10,430 nucleotides of DNA from Candidatus Auribacterota bacterium (GTDB lineage: Bacteria > Auribacterota > UBA6266). Within the stretch, counting starts at the first letter, position 1, and every line of letters begins with the position of its first letter. Of this stretch, positions 2,899 through 9,849 are shown piece after piece. The notes under the pieces were generated by a model. That model made no database searches. It was not told the DNA's origin and worked only from the letters and a program-made list of their open reading frames with translations. The position numbers were made by a program, and so were the translations under genes. The stretch covers positions 1 to 10,430 of the forward strand of contig JAGLRQ010000099.1 of assembly GCA_023136205.1 (NCBI GenBank), written 5' to 3'.

Positions 2899-2927
2899 TT
2901 GACAAAAAATAATATCTTGTGTATATT
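2899..2927 (+). promoter_or_regulatory. Candidate sigma70-type promoter of the Fur-family gene and operon
   Basis: Consensus TTGACA (2899-2904), a 17-nt spacer, then TATATT (2922-2927). The RBS AAGGAG is at 2951-2956 and the ATG at 2965. Confidence 0.55.
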
Positions 2928-2948: not shown

Positions 2949-2964
2949 ATAAGGAGTTATTGGT

Positions 2965-3438
2965 ATGCCTCGTGGAAACGGATTAGGGCCGCCGTGGTGG
3001 CATGGTAGATTTAGAGGCTGTGGATATAAAATTACTCTCGGTAGAGAAGCTATTCTCAATGCGCTTATCAAAGCCGATCAGCATTTAAGCGCTGAGGATA
3101 TTTATCAAAAGGTTCATACAACCTACCCTGCCATAGGATTAACAACCGTATACAGAACACTTGAAATCCTGGTTAATATGGGCCTTGTTTTTAAGTTTGA
3201 TTTTGGTGACGGCCGGGCAAGGTATGAACTCGTTGAAGGATCAAAGAAAAGCCATCATCACCACCATTTAGTATGTACCAATTGCAAACGGGTCATTGAC
3301 TATACAGATTTTGTAGATGATGAAATAGGATTACTTAAAAAAACAGAAAAAGGTTTATCTAAGAAATACAGCTTTGAGATAACAAATCATGTTATACAAT
3401 TTTACGGGCTGTGCGGCCAATGCAAAAATACTAAATAA
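2965..3438 (+). CDS. fur: Fur-family metalloregulator (Fur/Zur/PerR class not resolved) with a DUF5320-like extension of about 22 aa at the N-terminus
   Basis: The winged-helix region reads LSAEDIYQKV...IGLTTVYRTLEILVNMGLV. It is followed by SHHHHHLVCTNC and a C-terminal CGQC, i.e. the His-rich sensing site plus a CxxC...CxxC structural site typical of Fur-family proteins. The N-terminus is MPRGNGLGPPWWHGRFRGCGY. An AAGGAG RBS lies 8 nt upstream. Confidence 0.9.
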   Translation: MPRGNGLGPPWWHGRFRGCGYKITLGREAILNALIKADQHLSAEDIYQKVHTTYPAIGLTTVYRTLEILVNMGLVFKFDFGDGRARYELVEGSKKSHHHHHLVCTNCKRVIDYTDFVDDEIGLLKKTEKGLSKKYSFEITNHVIQFYGLCGQCKNTK

Positions 3439-3447
3439 TTTTTTCAA

Positions 3448-3474
3448 TATTAATGAAAATAATTTTCATTAATA
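3448..3474. promoter_or_regulatory. Perfect 27-bp palindrome with a Fur-box-like 7-1-7 core; putative operator
   Basis: The sequence is tattaatgaaaat-a-attttcattaata, with core TGAAAAT-A-ATTTTCA at 3454-3468. It lies 10 nt after the fur-like stop codon and 7 nt before the AGGAGGAGG RBS of the next gene. Confidence 0.6.
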
Positions 3475-3497: not shown

Positions 3498-3875
3498 ATG
3501 CCAAGAGGAGATGGAACCGGCCCAAGGGGAATGGGTCCCATGACAGGCCGGGCAGCAGGTTACTGCGCCGGTTATTCCGCGCCAGGTTATGCTAATCCGA
3601 TTTCCGGCAGAGGCCGGGGATTTGGTTATGGCCGCGGCAGAGGCTATGGTTGGGGCCGAGGCGGACGAGGAAGACAGGCCTGGGTTGGCTATGGACCCGC
3701 GTGGGGATACCCATATGGAGATGGCCTTGATTATGCAAATCCCGGCGCTCCAGAATTCACACCGCAACAGGAAGCAGAGATGCTTAAAAGAGAGGCCAAG
3801 GCTATGCAGAATGAGATTAACTCCATAAACCAGCGTATAAGTGAATTGGAATCTGCGGCAAAAGAGGCCAAATAA
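3498..3875 (+). CDS. DUF5320-family protein: conserved N-terminal motif, RG/aromatic-rich low-complexity region and C-terminal coiled coil
   Basis: This is ORF 3489..3875. The preferred start is ATG 3498, 8 nt after AGGAGGAGG (3481-3489). MPRGDGTGPRGMGPMTGRAAGYCAG matches the DUF5320 N-terminus as I recall it. It is followed by GRGRGFGYGRGRGYGWGRGGRGR and then the helical QQEAEMLKREAKAMQNEINSINQRISELESAAKEAK. There are tandem TAA TAA stops. Confidence 0.85.
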   Translation: MPRGDGTGPRGMGPMTGRAAGYCAGYSAPGYANPISGRGRGFGYGRGRGYGWGRGGRGRQAWVGYGPAWGYPYGDGLDYANPGAPEFTPQQEAEMLKREAKAMQNEINSINQRISELESAAKEAK

Positions 3876-3967: not shown

Positions 3968-4366
3968 ATGAGGGCGGCTATATCCACAGATGGTGGTTTT
4001 GTATCTGCTCATTTTGGCAGATGTCCATCTTTTACTATCATAGATATTGAAAATGGCAAAGTTGCGAAAAAAGAGGTTTTAGACAATCCCGGGCATCAAC
4101 CTGGACTCATACCGCAATTTTTACACCAAAAAGGCGTTGAATGTATAATTTGCGGCGGGATGGGAATGCGGGCAGCAGGTTTTTTTGAAGAACTCGGCAT
4201 ACAGGCGATTGTAGGGATAAGCGGCAAAATTGAAGAAGCAATAGAAAAACTTCAAAAAGGAACTTTGGAAGGCGGTAAAAGCTCATGCAATCCCGGCGCG
4301 GGCAAAGGTTATGGGATAGACAAAACTGTATGTGACCACCCAAATGAAGAGAACCACGAACATTAA
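3968..4366 (+). CDS. Stand-alone NifX/NafY/NifB-C-terminal-like domain protein (dinitrogenase FeMo-cofactor-binding fold, MTH1175-like) with a Cys/His-rich tail
   Basis: The family-typical pattern is MRAAISTDGG.VSAHFGRC..F.I.D.ENGK....VLDNPGH...CGGMG.RA...L.E.GI.A. The RBS AAGGAG is at 3955-3960. The extra tail reads SSCNPGAGKGYGIDKTVCDHPNEENHEH. Confidence 0.85.
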   Translation: MRAAISTDGGFVSAHFGRCPSFTIIDIENGKVAKKEVLDNPGHQPGLIPQFLHQKGVECIICGGMGMRAAGFFEELGIQAIVGISGKIEEAIEKLQKGTLEGGKSSCNPGAGKGYGIDKTVCDHPNEENHEH

Positions 4367-4383: not shown

Positions 4384-4758
4384 ATGAAGGTTTGTGTTAC
4401 TTCTGAAGGAAATAATCTGGATTCTAAGGTTGATCCTCGTTTTGGCAGGTGTCAGTATTTTATCATTGCGGATATCGATACTTTAGCATTTGAGGCTGTA
4501 CAGAATCCGAATATTGACTCAATGGGCGGAGCGGGAATTCAGTCCGGGCAATTAATAGCAGGGAAACAGGTAAAAGCTGTTTTAACGGGAAATATGGGGC
4601 CAAATGCTTTCCAGACACTACAAGCAGCAAATATAACCGTAGTTACCGGAATATCCGGCAGTGTTAAGGAAGCAGTCGAGAAATATAAAAACGGTGATTT
4701 TAAGGCCACGCAGGGGCCAAGCGTAGACTCAAAATTCGGCATGCCTCCGCAAAAATAA
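4384..4758 (+). CDS. Second stand-alone NifX/NafY-like domain protein
   Basis: MKVCVTSEGNNLDSKVDPRFGRCQYFIIADIDT...VQNP...GGAGIQSGQLIAGKQVKAVLTGNMGPNAFQTLQAANI fits the same fold pattern. A strong RBS AGGAGGGG (4374-4381) lies just upstream. Confidence 0.85.
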   Translation: MKVCVTSEGNNLDSKVDPRFGRCQYFIIADIDTLAFEAVQNPNIDSMGGAGIQSGQLIAGKQVKAVLTGNMGPNAFQTLQAANITVVTGISGSVKEAVEKYKNGDFKATQGPSVDSKFGMPPQK

Positions 4759-4849: not shown

Positions 4850-5074
4850 ATGCCAGGTGGAAATGGGACAGGCCCTTTTGGTGGAGGGCCGGGAACAGGC
4901 AGAGGTATGGGAGGAAGCGGCGGACGCGGCAGGATGGGGGGAAATCGCCCGGGCGCGGGCCCCGGCGGAGATTGCATCTGCCCTAAGTGTGGAGAAAAAG
5001 TATCTCATCAGGTAAGCGTTCCCTGCTATTCTATTGATTGCCCTAAATGTGGAACAAAAATGGTTAGAGGATAG
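4850..5074 (+). CDS. Mini-protein of 74 aa: a DUF5320-like Gly-rich N-terminus fused to a two-knuckle zinc ribbon
   Basis: This is ORF 4769..5074. The preferred start is ATG 4850, 6 nt after AAGGAGG (4837-4843). The N-terminus is MPGGNGTGPFGGGPGTGRGMGG and the C-terminus is C-I-CPKCG...PC....CPKCG. Confidence 0.75.
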   Translation: MPGGNGTGPFGGGPGTGRGMGGSGGRGRMGGNRPGAGPGGDCICPKCGEKVSHQVSVPCYSIDCPKCGTKMVRG

Positions 5075-5077
5075 AAT

Positions 5078-5926
5078 ATGATTATTGCTGTCGCCAGCGG
5101 AAAAGGTGGCACAGGTAAAACCACGGTCGCGGTGAATCTTGCACTGTCAAACTCAAACACGCAGCTTTCAGATTGCGATGTGGAAGAACCTAATGCCCAT
5201 ATTTTTATAAAACCAAAAATCAAAAATAAAGAGCTTATTTCTATTCCTGTGCCTGAAGTTGATAAATCTAAATGTGATGGCTGTGGCAGGTGCCAGGAGG
5301 TTTGCGCTTATAATGCCATAGCAGTTGTAAATAAAAAAGTGTTAATATTCCCCGAGCTTTGTCATGGGTGCGGCTCCTGCGGTTATTTCTGCCCTCAACA
5401 CGCGATAAAAGAAATAAATAAAGAAATTGGTTCTGTTGAAATCGGCAAAAGGGACAATTTGCTATTTGTGCATGGAAAGTTAAATATTGGCGAAGCAATG
5501 TCGCCGCCGCTCATAAAGGCAGTTAAAAAACATGTCAATCCCGCCCGAGTAAATATTATTGACGCGCCTCCGGGAACTTCCTGTCCTGTAATTACATCAA
5601 TAGAAGGAAGCGATTTTTGCCTTCTTGTTACCGAACCGACCCCCTTTGGATTAAATGACCTTATCCTCGCGGTTGAAGTCTTGAGGAAACTTGATATTCC
5701 CTTTGGTGTCGTTATCAACAGATCGGATTTAGGAGATAAAAAAACAGATGATTACTGTTCTCAGGAAAACATACCCGTACTTATGAGAATACCCTTCAAA
5801 AGAGAGATAGCTTCCGCTTATTCAAAAGGGATATCTATTGTTGAGGCATTCCCTGAATATAAAAAAGATTTTCAAGAGCTGCTGGATAATATTAGTAAGA
5901 TGGCAAAACAAAATAACAGAAGATAA
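5078..5926 (+). CDS. MinD/Mrp-class P-loop ATPase with an inserted 2x[4Fe-4S] ferredoxin domain (COG1149-like)
   Basis: The deviant Walker A is ASGKGGTGKTT. The inserted motifs are CDGCGRCQEVC and CHGCGSCGYFCP. Conserved extra cysteines occur in SDCDVEEPN and DAPPGTSCPV. The gene starts 3 nt after the previous stop. Confidence 0.9.
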   Translation: MIIAVASGKGGTGKTTVAVNLALSNSNTQLSDCDVEEPNAHIFIKPKIKNKELISIPVPEVDKSKCDGCGRCQEVCAYNAIAVVNKKVLIFPELCHGCGSCGYFCPQHAIKEINKEIGSVEIGKRDNLLFVHGKLNIGEAMSPPLIKAVKKHVNPARVNIIDAPPGTSCPVITSIEGSDFCLLVTEPTPFGLNDLILAVEVLRKLDIPFGVVINRSDLGDKKTDDYCSQENIPVLMRIPFKREIASAYSKGISIVEAFPEYKKDFQELLDNISKMAKQNNRR

Positions 5927-5941
5927 ATAATGGAGAGTTTA

Positions 5942-7282
5942 ATGGAAGAAAAAGTAGATATCCTTGTAATAGGCGGAGGCCCCGCTGGAATAATAAGCGC
6001 GGTAACCGCGAAAAAATATTACGCGAATAAGAAAATTTTGGTGATGAAAAGTATAGAAAACGGGGTTATCCCCTGCGGCATCCCCTATATGTTCGCGAGC
6101 CTGAAAAATCCCGATGAAAATAAGTTGGGTAATGCCGCTTTAGAAAAGAATAATATTAGTGTAATAGTAGACGAAGCGGTAAAAATTAATCGTGACAATA
6201 AAACAGTAGACACTAAAAATAAAAAAACATACCGTTATGAAAAATTAATACTGGCAATGGGTTCTTCGCCTGTTATCCCCCCTATCCCCGGCATCGATAA
6301 AAAAGGTATTTATCCAATATTTAAGGATATGGATTATCTTAAAAATGCTATAGAGCAAATTAGAAAGACAAAAAACATTGTCATATTAGGAGGCGGGTTT
6401 ATAGGAGTAGAATTTGCCGATGAAATTGCTAAAATCAAGGGCTTAAATGTGCATTTAGTAGAAATGCTTCCCGATTTACTGGCAAATTCTTTCGATTCAG
6501 AGTTTTCTAAGGCCGCGGAGGAAAAATTAAAATCTAAAGGGGTAACTGTTTTAACCGGCACTCGTATTGAAGAATTTACAGGTAACGAAAAGATAGAAGA
6601 AATTCGGCTTTCGGATGGAACAAAACTACCGGCCGACAGCGTAATTTTAGGCGCGGCGGCGGCTCCCGACACAAAACTAGCCGCTGACGCGGGGTTGGAT
6701 CTGGGCAGGGGGAAAGGAATATGGGTAGATGAATATATGCGGACAGTTGATCCGGATATTTTCGCCGTGGGAGACTGCGCCGGGAAAAAAGATTTTTATA
6801 CCCGCAAAGATGTTTCAGTAATGCTTGCTTCAACCGCGACTGCCGAGGCAAGGATTGCCGGGGCAAACCTTTATAAATTGAAAGTAGTGCGGGAAAACAA
6901 AGGAACAATAGCTATTTATTCAACTTATATTGATGGGTTGGTTTTAGGTTCGGCCGGGCTTACAGAGAATAGCGCTAAAAAAGAAAATTTTGAGATTGCG
7001 ACAGGTATTTCTAATGGAGTAGACAAACACCCTGCTACTTTACCGGGGACAAACAAAATTAAGGTTAAACTAATTTTTTCAAAACAATCAGGGATCATAT
7101 TAGGAGGACAGGTATACGGAGGCATATCGTGTGGTGAAATGATAAATTTAATAGGCCTTGCTATTCAAAAAAGAGTACTTTCTACAGAACTTGAAACGTT
7201 GCAAATGGCTACTCATCCTTATTTAACCAGCGCTCCAACGGTATATCCAATAGTGTTAGCCGCCCAGGATGCGTTTAAATAA
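5942..7282 (+). CDS. FAD-dependent pyridine nucleotide-disulfide oxidoreductase, single-Cys NADH oxidase/CoA-disulfide reductase type
   Basis: This is ORF 5930..7282. ATG 5942 has GGAG 6 nt upstream, and ATG 5930 is an alternative start. The FAD fold motif is DILVIGGGPAG, the NAD(P) fold motif is IVILGGGFIGVEFADE, and AVGDCAG is present. There is a single candidate redox Cys in GVIPCGIPY, comparable to the SF.NCG/ALPY motif of Nox/CoADR enzymes. Confidence 0.9.
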   Translation: MEEKVDILVIGGGPAGIISAVTAKKYYANKKILVMKSIENGVIPCGIPYMFASLKNPDENKLGNAALEKNNISVIVDEAVKINRDNKTVDTKNKKTYRYEKLILAMGSSPVIPPIPGIDKKGIYPIFKDMDYLKNAIEQIRKTKNIVILGGGFIGVEFADEIAKIKGLNVHLVEMLPDLLANSFDSEFSKAAEEKLKSKGVTVLTGTRIEEFTGNEKIEEIRLSDGTKLPADSVILGAAAAPDTKLAADAGLDLGRGKGIWVDEYMRTVDPDIFAVGDCAGKKDFYTRKDVSVMLASTATAEARIAGANLYKLKVVRENKGTIAIYSTYIDGLVLGSAGLTENSAKKENFEIATGISNGVDKHPATLPGTNKIKVKLIFSKQSGIILGGQVYGGISCGEMINLIGLAIQKRVLSTELETLQMATHPYLTSAPTVYPIVLAAQDAFK

Positions 7283-7314
7283 AAAATGATCGTAACATTT
7301 TAAAAGGATTGGTA

Positions 7315-8175
7315 ATGAAACAAATCGTTATAATAAGCGGCAAGGGAGGCACAGGAAAAACAGTAATTACAGGGGCATTTGCCGCTTTGGCAAAAAATAA
7401 GGTGATGGCTGATTGTGATGTTGACGCGGCAGATTTGCATCTATTATTAAAGCCGCAGATAAAAGAACGACATACCTTTAAAAGCGGCGCGACAGCGTTT
7501 ATTAATAAAGAACTCTGTACTCAGTGCGGAAAATGTGTTGAAGTATGCCGTTTTGATGCTATAAGCAAAGATTTTGTTATAGATTCTGTTTCCTGTGAGG
7601 GATGCGCGTTCTGTAGTTTCGCCTGTCCTGTTAACGCAATAACAATGGAAGAAAATGTTTCGGGCGAATGGTTTATATCGGACACACGTTTTGGATCTAT
7701 GGTGCACGCGAAACTTGGGATTGCCGAAGAAAATTCGGGAAAACTGGTTTCTTTAGTAAGGCAAAGAGCTAAGAAAATTGCTGAAGATGAAAAATCTGAT
7801 TGGATTATTATAGACGGTTCTCCCGGCATAGGGTGTCCGGTAATCGCTTCTCTCGGCGGCGTCAATTGTGCTTTAGTCGTCACCGAACCAACCTTATCAG
7901 GACTGCATGATGCTGATAGAGTTATAAAGGTTGCTAAACATTTTGGAGTACCAACTAAACTTGTGATAAATAAATATGATTTGAACTTGGAAATGACAAA
8001 AAACATAGAGCAGTACTGTCAGGATAATAACATTCAGCTTATCGGAAAGATAGGCTTCGATAAGGCTGTGGTGGAGGCAATGGTAGAAGGCAAGACAATA
8101 ATTGAGTATACGGATGGAAAAGCCAAAAGAGAAATTAGTGAAATGTGGGATAGGGTAGAAAAAGATATCCATTAG
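7315..8175 (+). CDS. Second MinD/Mrp-class ATPase with an inserted 2x[4Fe-4S] ferredoxin domain; paralog of 5078-5926
   Basis: This is ORF 7309..8175. The preferred start is ATG 7315, 6 nt after AAAGGA. Motifs are ISGKGGTGKT, CTQCGKCVEVC and CEGCAFCSFACP. The extra cysteines occur in ADCDVDAAD and DGSPGIGCPV. Confidence 0.9.
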   Translation: MKQIVIISGKGGTGKTVITGAFAALAKNKVMADCDVDAADLHLLLKPQIKERHTFKSGATAFINKELCTQCGKCVEVCRFDAISKDFVIDSVSCEGCAFCSFACPVNAITMEENVSGEWFISDTRFGSMVHAKLGIAEENSGKLVSLVRQRAKKIAEDEKSDWIIIDGSPGIGCPVIASLGGVNCALVVTEPTLSGLHDADRVIKVAKHFGVPTKLVINKYDLNLEMTKNIEQYCQDNNIQLIGKIGFDKAVVEAMVEGKTIIEYTDGKAKREISEMWDRVEKDIH

Positions 8176-8187
8176 TAAAAATCAAAA

Positions 8188-8964
8188 ATGGCAACAAAAA
8201 ATCTTAAATACATTTACGGGCCTGTCCCCTCCTGGAGATTGGGAAGTTCTTTGGGCATAGATCCTGTCTCATACAAAGAAAAAATTTGCAGTTTTGACTG
8301 TATTTATTGCCAATTGGGCAAAACAAAAGTGTTTTCTGATAAAAGAAAAATCTTCGTCCCTGTATCGAAAATTGTAGACGAATTAAAATTGTTGCCATCT
8401 ATAGAAATAGATTATATCACGTTTTCAGGCAGCGCAGAACCAACATTGGCTAAAAATTTGGGAACCATGATAAAAGCAACAAAGAAAATAAGGAATGAAA
8501 AAGTAGCAGTTTTAACCAATTCTTCCCTTTTAGATAAAAAAGACGTTCAGCAGAATTTATTGTTAGCCGATTTTGTCATAGCCAAACTTGACGCGGTTTC
8601 TCAAGAAACCTTTGAAATAATCAACAGCCCCCTGAAAACAATAAAATTTAATCCTGTTTTGAAGGGAATAAAGAATTTTCGAAGCATTTATAAAGGAAAA
8701 TTGGCGCTGCAGATAATGTTTGTTGAGCAAAACAAAAAACACGCGTCCGGAATCGCGCGGATGGCAAAAGAGATTAATCCTGATGAAGTACAAATCAATA
8801 CTCCTTTAAGGCCCTGTAGACTAAAGCCTTTATCGAAAGAAGAGTTACGTACTATAAAGAGCCATTTTAATGGTTTAAATAGTATTTCTGTATATGAAGC
8901 TGAAAAGAAAACGGTTAAGCCAATTAGCAGCGAAGATACATTGAAAAGGAGGGGTAAAATTTAA
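8188..8964 (+). CDS. Radical SAM enzyme, small and without an evident SPASM or other C-terminal cluster domain
   Basis: The CX3CX2C motif CSFDCIYC is near the N-terminus, and FSGSAEPTL is a GGE-like SAM-binding motif. The 258-aa length is consistent with a partial TIM barrel only. Confidence 0.85.
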   Translation: MATKNLKYIYGPVPSWRLGSSLGIDPVSYKEKICSFDCIYCQLGKTKVFSDKRKIFVPVSKIVDELKLLPSIEIDYITFSGSAEPTLAKNLGTMIKATKKIRNEKVAVLTNSSLLDKKDVQQNLLLADFVIAKLDAVSQETFEIINSPLKTIKFNPVLKGIKNFRSIYKGKLALQIMFVEQNKKHASGIARMAKEINPDEVQINTPLRPCRLKPLSKEELRTIKSHFNGLNSISVYEAEKKTVKPISSEDTLKRRGKI

Positions 8965-8967
8965 GAC

Positions 8968-9849
8968 ATGAAAACATATTTAGACTGCATCCCCTGCTTT
9001 TTTAAACAAGCTCTTGAGGCGGCAAGAATGGCTGGTGCCGGCGAGAGGATGCAAAAAAAGATATTAAATGAATTGGCCGAAATCCTGCCGGAATTTCCCT
9101 TAACTTCTTCCCCTCCTGAAATGGGCAGAATTATTTATGGGCTGGCTAGAAGGGTAACCCGGAGAGATGACCCTTATCTGAAGATAAAAGAAAAGAGCAA
9201 TCAACTTGCTCTGAATATTTATGGTAAGTTAAAAAAGAAAATAAGCCGTTCCCCTGATAAATTATTGATGGCGGTTAAGCTGGCTATTGCGGGTAATATT
9301 ATTGATTATGGCGTAAAAAATTCCCTGAATGTTGACGTGGAACTGGCAAAAATTCTAAACGAAGAAAATAAAGCTATTAACGAAGAAAAGAAGTCAATAT
9401 TTGATTACGCGAGATTTAAGAGTACTTTAAGGAGGGCAAAAACTATTCTTTACCTTGCTGACAATGCCGGAGAAACAGTTTTTGACCGCATTCTTATTGA
9501 GGAGATAAAAAGAATTGATGGAGATAAAAGAATTGTCTATGCTGTCAAAGAAAAGCCTGTTATTAACGACGCGTTAGTTGAAGATGCCTGTGTATGTGGG
9601 ATTGACAAATTAGCAAAGGTTATTTCTTCGGGCTCAGATGCTCCGGGAACAGTTCTTTCTTTATGTTCAAAAAATTTCTTAAGAATATACAAAAAAGCGG
9701 ATATGGTCATAAGTAAAGGACAGGGGAACTTCGAGGCCTTATCAACAACAAAAAGACAGGCCTTTTTTCTCCTCATGGCAAAGTGTCCGGTAATTGCCAA
9801 AGATGTTGGATGTGAAGTCGGGGATGTGATTTTAAGGAGTCTATTTTAA
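8968..9849 (+). CDS. DUF89 (ARMT1-like, damage-control phosphatase family) protein
   Basis: The N-terminal CIPCFFKQALEAA, plus the DNAGETVFD and SKGQGNFEAL motifs, match the metal-binding signatures of DUF89 proteins as I recall them. The gene starts 3 nt after the radical SAM stop. Confidence 0.85.
   Translation: MKTYLDCIPCFFKQALEAARMAGAGERMQKKILNELAEILPEFPLTSSPPEMGRIIYGLARRVTRRDDPYLKIKEKSNQLALNIYGKLKKKISRSPDKLLMAVKLAIAGNIIDYGVKNSLNVDVELAKILNEENKAINEEKKSIFDYARFKSTLRRAKTILYLADNAGETVFDRILIEEIKRIDGDKRIVYAVKEKPVINDALVEDACVCGIDKLAKVISSGSDAPGTVLSLCSKNFLRIYKKADMVISKGQGNFEALSTTKRQAFFLLMAKCPVIAKDVGCEVGDVILRSLF

Follow-up and report, generated by a model that had tools for sequence, protein, structure and literature searches.

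The Fur/PerR family, as represented by Fur and PerR of Bacillus subtilis and the PerR3-type protein of B. licheniformis, has a winged-helix and dimerisation fold, CxxC pairs and a five-residue regulatory site, and it is associated with autoregulation and with 7-1-7 AT-rich palindromic operators overlapping the promoter. These features were all recognised, autoregulation and the operators as predictions, for a Fur-family gene at positions 2965-3438 of a stretch of 10,430 nt from a Candidatus Auribacterota bacterium (contig JAGLRQ010000099.1, assembly GCA_023136205.1; the whole stretch is referred to here as the window). Unlike other members of the family, however, the regulator of the window has its helix alpha1 replaced by WWHGRFRGCGY behind a disordered tail that is similar to the start of DUF5320 proteins, and it is dedicated to an operon of DUF5320, NifX-like and P-loop ATPase genes rather than to iron uptake or classical peroxide genes. 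It is a member of a multi-phylum Fur clade that is dedicated to operons of this type. It has been reported that the Fur proteins of Helicobacter pylori and Campylobacter jejuni carry functional N-terminal extensions of 9-10 aa (PMC3950669), and the regulator of the window likewise has a short lineage-specific addition at the N-terminus of a Fur protein. However, the extension in those species is helical and is not common to the products of target genes, whereas the nine residues at the start of the regulator studied here are predicted to be disordered.

The gene content of the window resembles that of the orange protein (ORP) systems of Desulfovibrio, in which Orp3, Orp4, Orp5, Orp8 and Orp9 form a physical complex, Orp5 is homologous to a small [2Fe-2S] protein, and the orange protein binds an anionic Mo-Cu-S cluster non-covalently (PMC6345978). 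The Desulfovibrio orp operons are under the control of OrpR, whose N-terminal PAS domain senses redox potential via a [4Fe-4S] cluster (PMC8359166). As in D. vulgaris, a NifX-like orange protein, two MinD-like ATPases with 2x[4Fe-4S] motifs, small accessory proteins and a dedicated regulator are encoded together, and the two PF02579 proteins and two CbiA/ParA-Fer4 proteins of the window correspond to the composition described for ORP (PMC6345978). In contrast, the regulator in the window is a Fur-family repressor, whereas OrpR belongs to the sigma-54 enhancer-binding proteins and has an Fe-S PAS domain, and the window has one co-directional operon instead of two divergent ones. A fused Mrp-NifX protein (MrpORP) was not found in the window, where only partial matches to NF041136 were obtained, with at most 96.6 bits compared to the 450 required.

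Another point of comparison is IssA of Pyrococcus furiosus, in which a NifX-like (IPR003731) domain is joined by a cationic tail that lacks structure, abounds in Gly, Arg, Trp and other aromatics, and has been proposed to wrap anionic thioferrate (PMC5524996). The composition of this tail resembles that of the middle region of the longer DUF5320 protein of the window (GRGRGFGYGRGRGYGWGRGGRGR...), which is encoded beside two NifX-like proteins, and also that of the Arg/Gly/Trp-rich Fur tails of distant clade members. However, the IssA tail is C-terminal on the same polypeptide, whereas the tail-like sequence of the window is on separate DUF5320 proteins and the two NifX-like proteins have only short C-terminal ends; furthermore, IssA is without the MPRGDGTGP motif, and there is no description of an IssA regulator that carries a similar tail.

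DUF5320 (PF17253) itself is a large family of more than 7,000 clusters at E up to 1e-5 (7060 homologues for the longer protein of the window, with PF17253 in all 120 matches listed). The regulator's nine-residue start follows the signature of this family, and two carriers of the DUF5320 N-terminal module are encoded in the same operon. Our search of the literature on DUF5320 function found nothing other than two irrelevant mentions and no paper containing MPRGDGTGP, and our search for PDB relatives or solved structures of DUF5320 proteins found none. Fur folds, operators of this type and ORP-like sets of genes are already known; we found no description of a DUF5320-tied multi-phylum Fur clade, of a rewritten alpha1, or of a regulator with an N-terminal linear motif that also occurs in proteins encoded by its own operon. 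The clade is now defined together with its operators, a PerR-like metal site and an unusual N-terminus. The features on which this is based are as follows.

2965-3438, plus strand: Fur-family regulator, 157 aa (Pfam PF01475, 8.1e-32)
2965-2991, plus strand: codons 1-9 of the regulator, MPRGNGLGP, disordered tail resembling the DUF5320 N-terminal motif (predicted local distance difference test, pLDDT, ~51; coil)
2992-3036, plus strand: codons 10-24 of the regulator, PWWHGRFRGCGYKIT, rewritten helix alpha1 and junction to the DNA-binding domain (from conservation and AlphaFold)
3498-3875, plus strand: DUF5320-long, 125 aa (Pfam PF17253, 8.1e-26, 91.5 bits)
4850-5074, plus strand: short DUF5320-like protein, 74 aa (Pfam match of residues 1-39 to DUF5320 that stays under the gathering score, 4.5e-4; zinc-ribbon hints)

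The shared N-terminus and the Fur clade

The original prediction for this locus was that three of its proteins begin almost identically, and all three N-termini were found as described: the Fur-like protein starts at ATG 2965 with MPRGNGLGPPWWHGRFRGCGYKIT, DUF5320-long at ATG 3498 with MPRGDGTGPRGMGPMTGRAAGYCAGY, and the short DUF5320-like protein at ATG 4850 with MPGGNGTGPFGGGPGTGRGMGG. Their first nine residues are MPRGNGLGP, MPRGDGTGP and MPGGNGTGP, respectively, with MP[RG]G[DN]G.GP in common, and the codons used for the motif differ among the three genes (ATGCCTCGTGGAAACGGATTAGGGCCG / ATGCCAAGAGGAGATGGAACCGGCCCA / ATGCCAGGTGGAAATGGGACAGGCCCT), as had also been noted. The claim that ATG 2965 is the only sensible start of the regulator holds as well, since an in-frame TAA lies upstream at 2950-2952, AAGGAG is located 8 nt before the ATG, and there is no further in-frame ATG, GTG or TTG before Met72. 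The mechanically called open reading frames (ORFs) of the two DUF5320 genes start further upstream, at GTG 3489 and ATG 4769; positions 3498 and 4850 are each preceded by a good ribosome-binding site, and the homologues begin at the MP motif.

The specificity of the motif was analyzed in six-frame translations of 825 kb, comprising 68 species-level genome loci plus the window. The strict form MP[RG][GR][DN]G.GP gave 63 matches, 17 in Fur and 46 in long or short DUF5320 genes, all on the strand of fur, and none was found in these translations outside the Fur clade and the DUF5320 genes. A 9-column hidden Markov model (HMM) was too weak as a detector, giving 13-18 bits for DUF5320 itself and at least 5 bits for only 4 of 66 Fur proteins, and therefore matches to consensus positions were counted against the background instead. 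Ten of 10,578 Met positions in unrelated ORFs matched at least six of the nine consensus positions, but five of these were 9/9 matches in what are evidently unrecognised DUF5320-type ORFs just downstream of fur, so that the true non-family background is about 5 in 10,578 (~5e-4). At the same level of at least 6/9, the Fur start matched in 37 of 66 species. Chance is excluded as the cause of the likeness. Recent duplication of, or gene conversion between, fur and DUF5320 was also rejected, because the identity at third codon positions (synonymous sites) within genomes barely exceeds that between genomes (0.42 versus 0.37 and 0.56 versus 0.45), and it is by the same comparison that the likeness appears to be maintained at the protein level, as was originally proposed.

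The addition to the regulator is shorter than the approximately 22 aa that had been suggested. The tail comprises only about nine residues, and alpha1 has given way to residues 10-21, because the PDB Fur alignments start at residue 17 of the query, which corresponds to residue 13 of the closest solved Fur, and because in the AlphaFold model (from a 72-sequence alignment) residues 1-9 are coil of low confidence, followed by a short helix at the position of alpha1 (residues 10-16, PWWHGRF). The canonical amphipathic alpha1 of the Fur family is thus absent from the regulator of the window, which has PWWHGRFRGCGY and the disordered 9-aa tail instead. The AlphaFold confidence for the rewritten segment was modest. 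When conservation was counted over the 45 species with canonical spacing (out of 66), W11, W12, F16, G20 and T24 were invariant, and Y21 (41/45), H13, G14 and G18 (40/45 each), C19 (38/45) and R15 (37/45) were kept in most species. Within the 9-mer, the counts were 45 for M, 41 for P2, 29 for R3, 25 for G6, 39 for G8 and 37 for P9, while position 4 was divided between G and R (21 each), position 5 was D in 15, N in 13 and F in 9 species, and position 7 was free (0.88 bit). The WWHGRFRGCGY block, and not the shared 9-mer, is the strongly conserved part of this N-terminus and the hallmark of the clade.

All 120 of the closest homologues (68-97% identity, ~157 aa) have an N-terminus of the WWHG type, and most of them start with MP. 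The clade N-terminus was found across 66 species of at least 7 phyla, including Omnitrophota, WOR-3, TA06, Atribacterota, Cloacimonadota, Elusimicrobiota, Spirochaetota and others, while five Fur paralogues within the same loci have ordinary helical N-termini without it. Homologues lacking the extension, or an extension that is not conserved, had been named as observations that would speak against the proposal; the N-terminus as a whole is kept in 120/120 close homologues, and the proposal was thus not refuted by this test. The shared 9-mer is nevertheless the part of the Fur N-terminus under least constraint. The extension was also expected to co-occur with DUF5320 operons. This was found to be the case, as DUF5320-long starts no more than 700 bp after fur in 58 of the 61 loci with enough downstream sequence, and the association persists in relatives of 40-59% identity. 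Four apparent exceptions in the comparison of gene order proved to be detection misses. The adjacency of fur and DUF5320 was observed in relatives at 59%, 46%, 40% and ~33% identity.

In a search of 1.84 billion cluster representatives, alpha1 was again found to be replaced in a wider clade at 33-59% identity, and the tails of its distant members are Arg/Gly/Trp-rich (MPRGFGRWRHRFRDGGFRVT, MGRGYGRGQGRGHGWGRQ, MPGWGRQGQGGGRGNQRGRGRG); canonical Furs beyond this wider clade have helical N-termini. Where the contigs allow, the distant Fur gene is directly followed by DUF5320, as for P0122 (locus L189), P0211 (L190, L191), P0212 (L195, L196) and P0236 (L194, for which the adjacency was read from the DNA). 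For instance, at 5001-6689 of L195, and also in L196, the gene for a Fur of 40% identity that carries the tail MGRGYGRGQGRGHGWGRQ precedes one for a DUF5320 protein of 83 aa, after which comes a peroxiredoxin (AhpC-TSA) gene, and no NifX or P-loop genes were found near the pair in L195. Because the pair is followed here by a peroxiredoxin and not by NifX/P-loop genes, this suggests that Fur and DUF5320 together form the conserved core unit. In an unbiased metagenome scan with the back-translated motif, almost all of the 145 motif ORFs obtained were DUF5320 variants, no other regulator family was found among them, and a Fur match was present in 6 of 120 loci. The dependency between Fur and DUF5320 is one-way.

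DUF5320-long consists of the N-module MPRGDGTGP.G.GPMTGR..GYCAGY, a middle region rich in Gly, Arg and aromatic residues, and a C-terminal coiled-coil helix. The gathering cut-off of the family is 27 bits, far below the score of the whole protein, and the first 31 aa alone reach 47.8 bits. Residues 1-81 (3498-3740) are predicted by AlphaFold to be disordered (pLDDT ~42), in contrast to the helix at 89-124 (>90), and although they are predicted to be disordered, many of their positions, including the single invariant Cys23, are invariant across 59-71 sequences. D5 is conserved in 56/59, T7 in 57/59 and C23 in 59/59 sequences. The short DUF5320-like protein combines the N-module with an RG-rich linker and a Cys-rich ribbon, C.CP.CG...PC...CPKCG, without a coiled coil; it scored 21.8 bits against the cut-off of 27, over profile positions 1-42 only, and its family logo is MP[GRF]GDGTGP.G.GPGTGRG, with Thr7 in 27 of 29 sequences. 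Judging from gene order and the description of the ORP complex (PMC6345978), it is probably an Orp5-type small Fe-S protein. The regulator itself is not a member of DUF5320, as it has neither the GYCAGY block nor the coiled coil, nor any match beyond residue 9.

In the metagenome scan the N-module was found with a coiled coil, a Cys ribbon, a 2x[4Fe-4S] ferredoxin domain, hydrophobic helices and Fur as partners. The module behaves as a portable N-terminal unit, because it was found both ahead of a ferredoxin domain (an MPRGDGTGP/RG-rich module fused to a 2x[4Fe-4S] domain, L179 +508) and ahead of C-terminal hydrophobic helices (L111 +11895 and L157 -4942). Tandem N-modules, with MPGFDGTGP..GYC.. 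followed after ~20 residues by a second MPRGDGTGP, were observed at 6445-6969 of L012 and 10525-10671 of L024, and may reflect either duplication of the module or two small genes lying side by side. In L037, an extra mini-ORF of 56 aa (10498-10668; leader MEMVFNNKGRCD, then MPRFDGTGPRSGSKGARVGKGQGKG...) is located between fur and a regular DUF5320-long gene. The possibility that the module is an arginine-finger-type activator peptide for the MinD-like ATPases was considered and set aside, as position 3 in DUF5320 is more often Gly than Arg.

Predicted operators and metal sites of the regulator

The following regulatory elements were predicted around the fur-like gene.

2899-2927, plus strand: sigma-70-type promoter of the fur-like gene, TTGACA-17-TATATT (11/12 consensus), immediately upstream of box A
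2934-2948, no strand assigned: putative operator box A, Fur-box-like 7-1-7 inverted repeat TGGAAACCATTTTCA, best match to TGAAAAT-N-ATTTTCA
2951-2956, plus strand: ribosome-binding site AAGGAG of the fur-like gene, 8 nt before ATG 2965
3454-3468, no strand assigned: putative operator box B, TGAAAATAATTTTCA, in the gap from the fur stop codon to the start of DUF5320-long (14/14 consensus)

Both boxes resemble the 7-1-7 Fur box of B. subtilis. A half-site TGATAAT has been mentioned for the Fur box (PMC3950669). The equivalent of box A is located at approximately -30 from the start codon in most of the 66 loci, and box B, 16 nt after the fur stop in the window, has equivalents 15-27 nt after the stop in nearly all loci. 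Within the 825 kb, 111 sites matched at least 12 of the 14 positions, of which 36 were in the box A region and 54 in the box B region, 90 in total. Boxes were found at equivalent positions in L001-L067 and persist in the distant members L193, L194 and L195, with box B present in both L193 and L195. With two conserved predicted operators at fixed positions, the earlier suggestion that the regulator controls the pathway in which it is encoded gains support, and, as judged from these sequences, the Fur-family protein is very probably an autoregulated repressor of this operon. The palindrome following fur was also considered as a terminator; the operator reading was preferred because the palindrome is AT-rich, was not called as a terminator in our scan, and recurs upstream of fur. 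A further operator-like sequence, TAAAAAAGATTTTCA (12/14), at 5860-5874, falls within the first P-loop ATPase gene at its 3' end, a short way ahead of the disulfide reductase gene, and is probably due to chance.

The assignment to the Fur family is clear from PF01475 (110.3 bits against a cut-off of 23.1, residues 20-147) and from 24 PDB chains of Fur, PerR or Zur matched at E up to 1e-5, the best at 3.4e-28. The two CxxC pairs C104/C107 and C150/C153 of the predicted structural Zn site are invariant in the 72 sequences aligned and correspond to C96/C99/C136/C139 of PerR, and the predicted regulatory site H40/E88/H99/H101/D112, which aligns to H37/D85/H91/H93/D104 of B. subtilis PerR, is invariant or at least 90% conserved in the same alignment. 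Fur proteins have Glu at the position of PerR D104, Asp being PerR-type, and the Glu/Asp combination at the D85/D104 positions has been reported for a PerR-like paralogue of B. licheniformis (PMC4866751). In the regulator of the window, D112 (3298-3300; at least 90% conserved) is the PerR-type Asp at the D104 position. Since its D112/E88 pattern is that of the PerR-like paralogue, the regulator may sense peroxide or redox rather than iron alone, and Fe2+/Mn2+ plus peroxide is a candidate effector. No NCBIfam equivalog model matched at its cut-off: scores fell short for PerR (97.4 versus 180 bits for NF052545 and 71.2 versus 200 bits for NF047406), and the best NCBIfam match, to a Bacillus-type Fur with 130.3 bits, was also below its cut-off of 220. 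The only hint of a PerR-like response, in which Fe-mediated oxidation of His by H2O2 would release the protein from DNA, is the peroxiredoxin gene after the Fur-DUF5320 pair of L195.

Possible roles of the tail

We tentatively propose, as an account whose chance of being correct is somewhat short of even, that the regulator is an autoregulated repressor with a tail directed at the partner, or the anionic metal-sulfide ligand, of the DUF5320 proteins. The repressor would bind two 7-1-7 palindromes, one at its own promoter and one ahead of DUF5320. Its usual alpha1 has been rebuilt to WWHGRFRGCGY, and the tail ahead of it, predicted to be disordered, copies the linear motif that defines DUF5320, while distant members carry the Gly/Arg/Trp-rich character of the DUF5320 middle region in place of the 9-mer. 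Such a tail could let the repressor weakly occupy the site used by the DUF5320 proteins, which might be a component of the NifX/P-loop machinery or a negatively charged metal-sulfide species like that proposed for the IssA tail, and the activity of the repressor would thereby respond to how heavily the controlled system is loaded. We infer any binding by the tail, and any effect of it on repression, from the identity of the motif, the portability of the module, the coexistence of disorder and conservation, the obligate adjacency of the genes, and the analogies with IssA and ORP. N-termini that are conserved and yet predicted to be disordered, as in Fur and DUF5320-long, would be expected of a motif that folds on binding. 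If this were true, the locus would be a compact case of feedback through a common linear motif and would point to a component or ligand recognised by the conserved DUF5320 N-module. A more specific form of this proposal, which we consider doubtful, is that the Fur tail and the DUF5320 N-module with its RG/aromatic region bind the same anionic metal-sulfide polymer or cluster (IssA-like thioferrate or the cargo of the NifX-like proteins), or co-assemble with each other, so that titration of the repressor would follow how full an Fe-S storage and delivery system is. This would represent a direct product- or cargo-sensing mode that has not been described for Fur-family proteins, and would offer an experimental handle on ORP/DUF5320 function in anaerobes.

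Several results weigh against a shared partner or ligand. The 9-mer is far less constrained in Fur, with its free position 7 and variable position 5, than it is in DUF5320: DUF5320-long matches at least 8 of the 9 consensus positions in 57/59 sequences, whereas Fur matches at least seven in only 25 of 66 species and four or fewer in 18 of 66. The Fur proteins of Atribacterota, WOR-3 and Spirochaetota have diverged from the 9-mer or lost it (drifted tails include MPGRWGGGPAK in Atribacterota, MPKRFDYYP, MRHNMGPP and, in a spirochaete, MIVDKRWYKRF), while the DUF5320 proteins in the same genomes keep the motif. Because DUF5320 keeps the motif while the Fur tail drifts, an identical partner-binding constraint in the two is unlikely; with its conservation relaxed, the constraint on the 9-mer in Fur therefore cannot equal that in DUF5320. 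In addition, only 1 of the 145 motif-bearing ORFs of the metagenome scan was a Fur. No likeness was found past residue 9, where an HMM of DUF5320 columns 10-26 gave at most 0.1 bit on every Fur, and a longer homology between GR..GYC.GY and GRFRGCGY, which is plausible by eye, was rejected on the same result. The Pfam DUF5320 model gave no match at E up to 10 on the Fur N-terminus of the window and only 13.7-13.9 bits, against the cut-off of 27, on two of three homologue N-termini tested. Furthermore, the proposed equivalence of the DUF5320 proteins with Orp5/Orp7 derives from gene order and not from sequence comparison.

The tail might instead be an arm that contacts DNA, entering the narrow minor groove of the A-tract operator and adding affinity or specificity in the manner of Arg arms and AT-hooks, in which case the likeness to DUF5320 would be incidental, a result of common ancestry or similar composition. 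The location of the tail immediately before the DNA-binding domain, the A/T-tract palindromes of the putative operators and the strongly cationic, RG-rich tails of distant members, such as MPGWGRQGQGGGRGNQRGRGRG and MGRGYGRGQGRGHGWGRQ, are consistent with this, as are the functional extensions of H. pylori and C. jejuni Fur and the documented readout of the minor groove by Arg (PMC3950669). However, the 9-mer in the clade of the window is net neutral (R3, D/N5) and Gly/Pro-rich, its best-kept positions (P2, G8 and P9) are none of them basic, and such an arm would leave the copying of the exact start of two operon proteins unexplained; we regard it as unlikely, though deserving of serious weight. 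Rather unlikely as well is an evolutionary remnant, in which an ancient fusion with, or 5'-end capture from, a DUF5320 gene supplied the ancestor of this Fur clade with its N-terminus, only WWHGRFRGCGY gained a function, and the first nine residues, having at most a minor role, are drifting. A remnant of this kind would account for the predicted disorder of the tail, the confinement of the likeness to nine residues and the graded decay of the 9-mer across lineages in which WW.G.F..G is near-invariant, but it is difficult to reconcile with the retention of P2 (41/45), G8 (39/45) and P9 (37/45) across several phyla, down to ~65% identity, with a tail length kept in 45 of 66 species, or with a match of at least 6/9 in 37/66 species against a background of ~5e-4; moreover, distant members have swapped the tail for another DUF5320-like Gly/Arg/Trp sequence and have not lost it.

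It is improbable, in our view, that the N-terminus is primarily a redox or metal sensor in which His13 and Cys19, maybe with the tail, serve as ligands of a metal or an Fe-S cluster, or act as a thiol switch, to give a second input besides the canonical Fur/PerR site, the 9-mer being incidental. The two residues are conserved in 40/45 and 38/45 species, respectively, the single Cys of the DUF5320-long N-module is invariant (59/59), the canonical site has the PerR-type Asp at the D104 equivalent, and OrpR provides a precedent for N-terminal redox sensing by a [4Fe-4S] cluster (PMC8359166). However, Cys19 gives way to Ala, His, Arg or Gly among the 45 canonically spaced species and to Asn, Gln or Tyr in other members, one Cys and one His per subunit are insufficient alone for a cluster, and the segment is modelled with only modest confidence. 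In a Fur dimer each N-terminus sits on a DNA-binding domain of its own, which also counts against such a sensor. A Cys19/His13 sensor is compatible with the other explanations. Even if the tail proves to be a DNA-contacting arm or a remnant, the assignment of the regulon and the operator motif can be used for annotation.

Other genes of the window

The Fur-family gene is the first of a co-directional cluster on the plus strand that extends to the ARMT1/DUF89-like gene at 8968-9849. Besides the genes given above, it contains the following.

3968-4366, plus strand: NifX/orange-protein-like protein 1, Nitro_FeMo-Co domain (PF02579, 5.3e-25); syntenic in most loci
4384-4758, plus strand: NifX/orange-protein-like protein 2, Nitro_FeMo-Co domain (PF02579, 6.7e-26); syntenic
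5078-5926, plus strand: MinD/Mrp-type P-loop ATPase with two [4Fe-4S] motifs, Orp3/Orp4-like (ParA/CbiA and Fer4); syntenic
5930-7282, plus strand: pyridine-nucleotide disulfide oxidoreductase (Pyr_redox_2, 6.5e-63; NCBIfam matches below cut-off); in a subset of loci
7315-8175, plus strand: second P-loop ATPase with two [4Fe-4S] motifs (CbiA and Fer4); syntenic
8188-8964, plus strand: radical SAM protein, accessory (PF04055, 8.1e-13); in a subset of clusters, scored in 10 ORFs across loci
8968-9849, plus strand: ARMT1/DUF89-like damage-control phosphatase, accessory (PF01937, 2.3e-72)

In the loci compared, the typical gene order is Fur, DUF5320-long, NifX, NifX, (small ferredoxin), DUF5320-short, P-loop, P-loop. 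The oxidoreductase at 5930-7282 is similar to CoA-disulfide reductase and NADH oxidase. The ARMT1/DUF89-like gene recurs within DUF5320 clusters, being located between the DUF5320 and NifX genes in L190 (1911-2756), L191, L073, L086 and L131. No Rfam family was found at gathering score in a search of the window for structured RNAs and riboswitches. Upstream of the cluster, the window contains ORFs for a membrane-like protein of 191 aa (314-889) and a protein of 464 aa (820-2214), and a divergent ORF of 144 aa on the minus strand (2387-2821) with repeated ..TVK/..AAGKTVK.. segments; these upstream genes (314-2821) adjoin fur only in the near-identical locus L001. In L189, an IS110-family transposase (7009-8037) is inserted in the cluster, between the NifX-like genes and the genes for the small ferredoxin and DUF5320-short.

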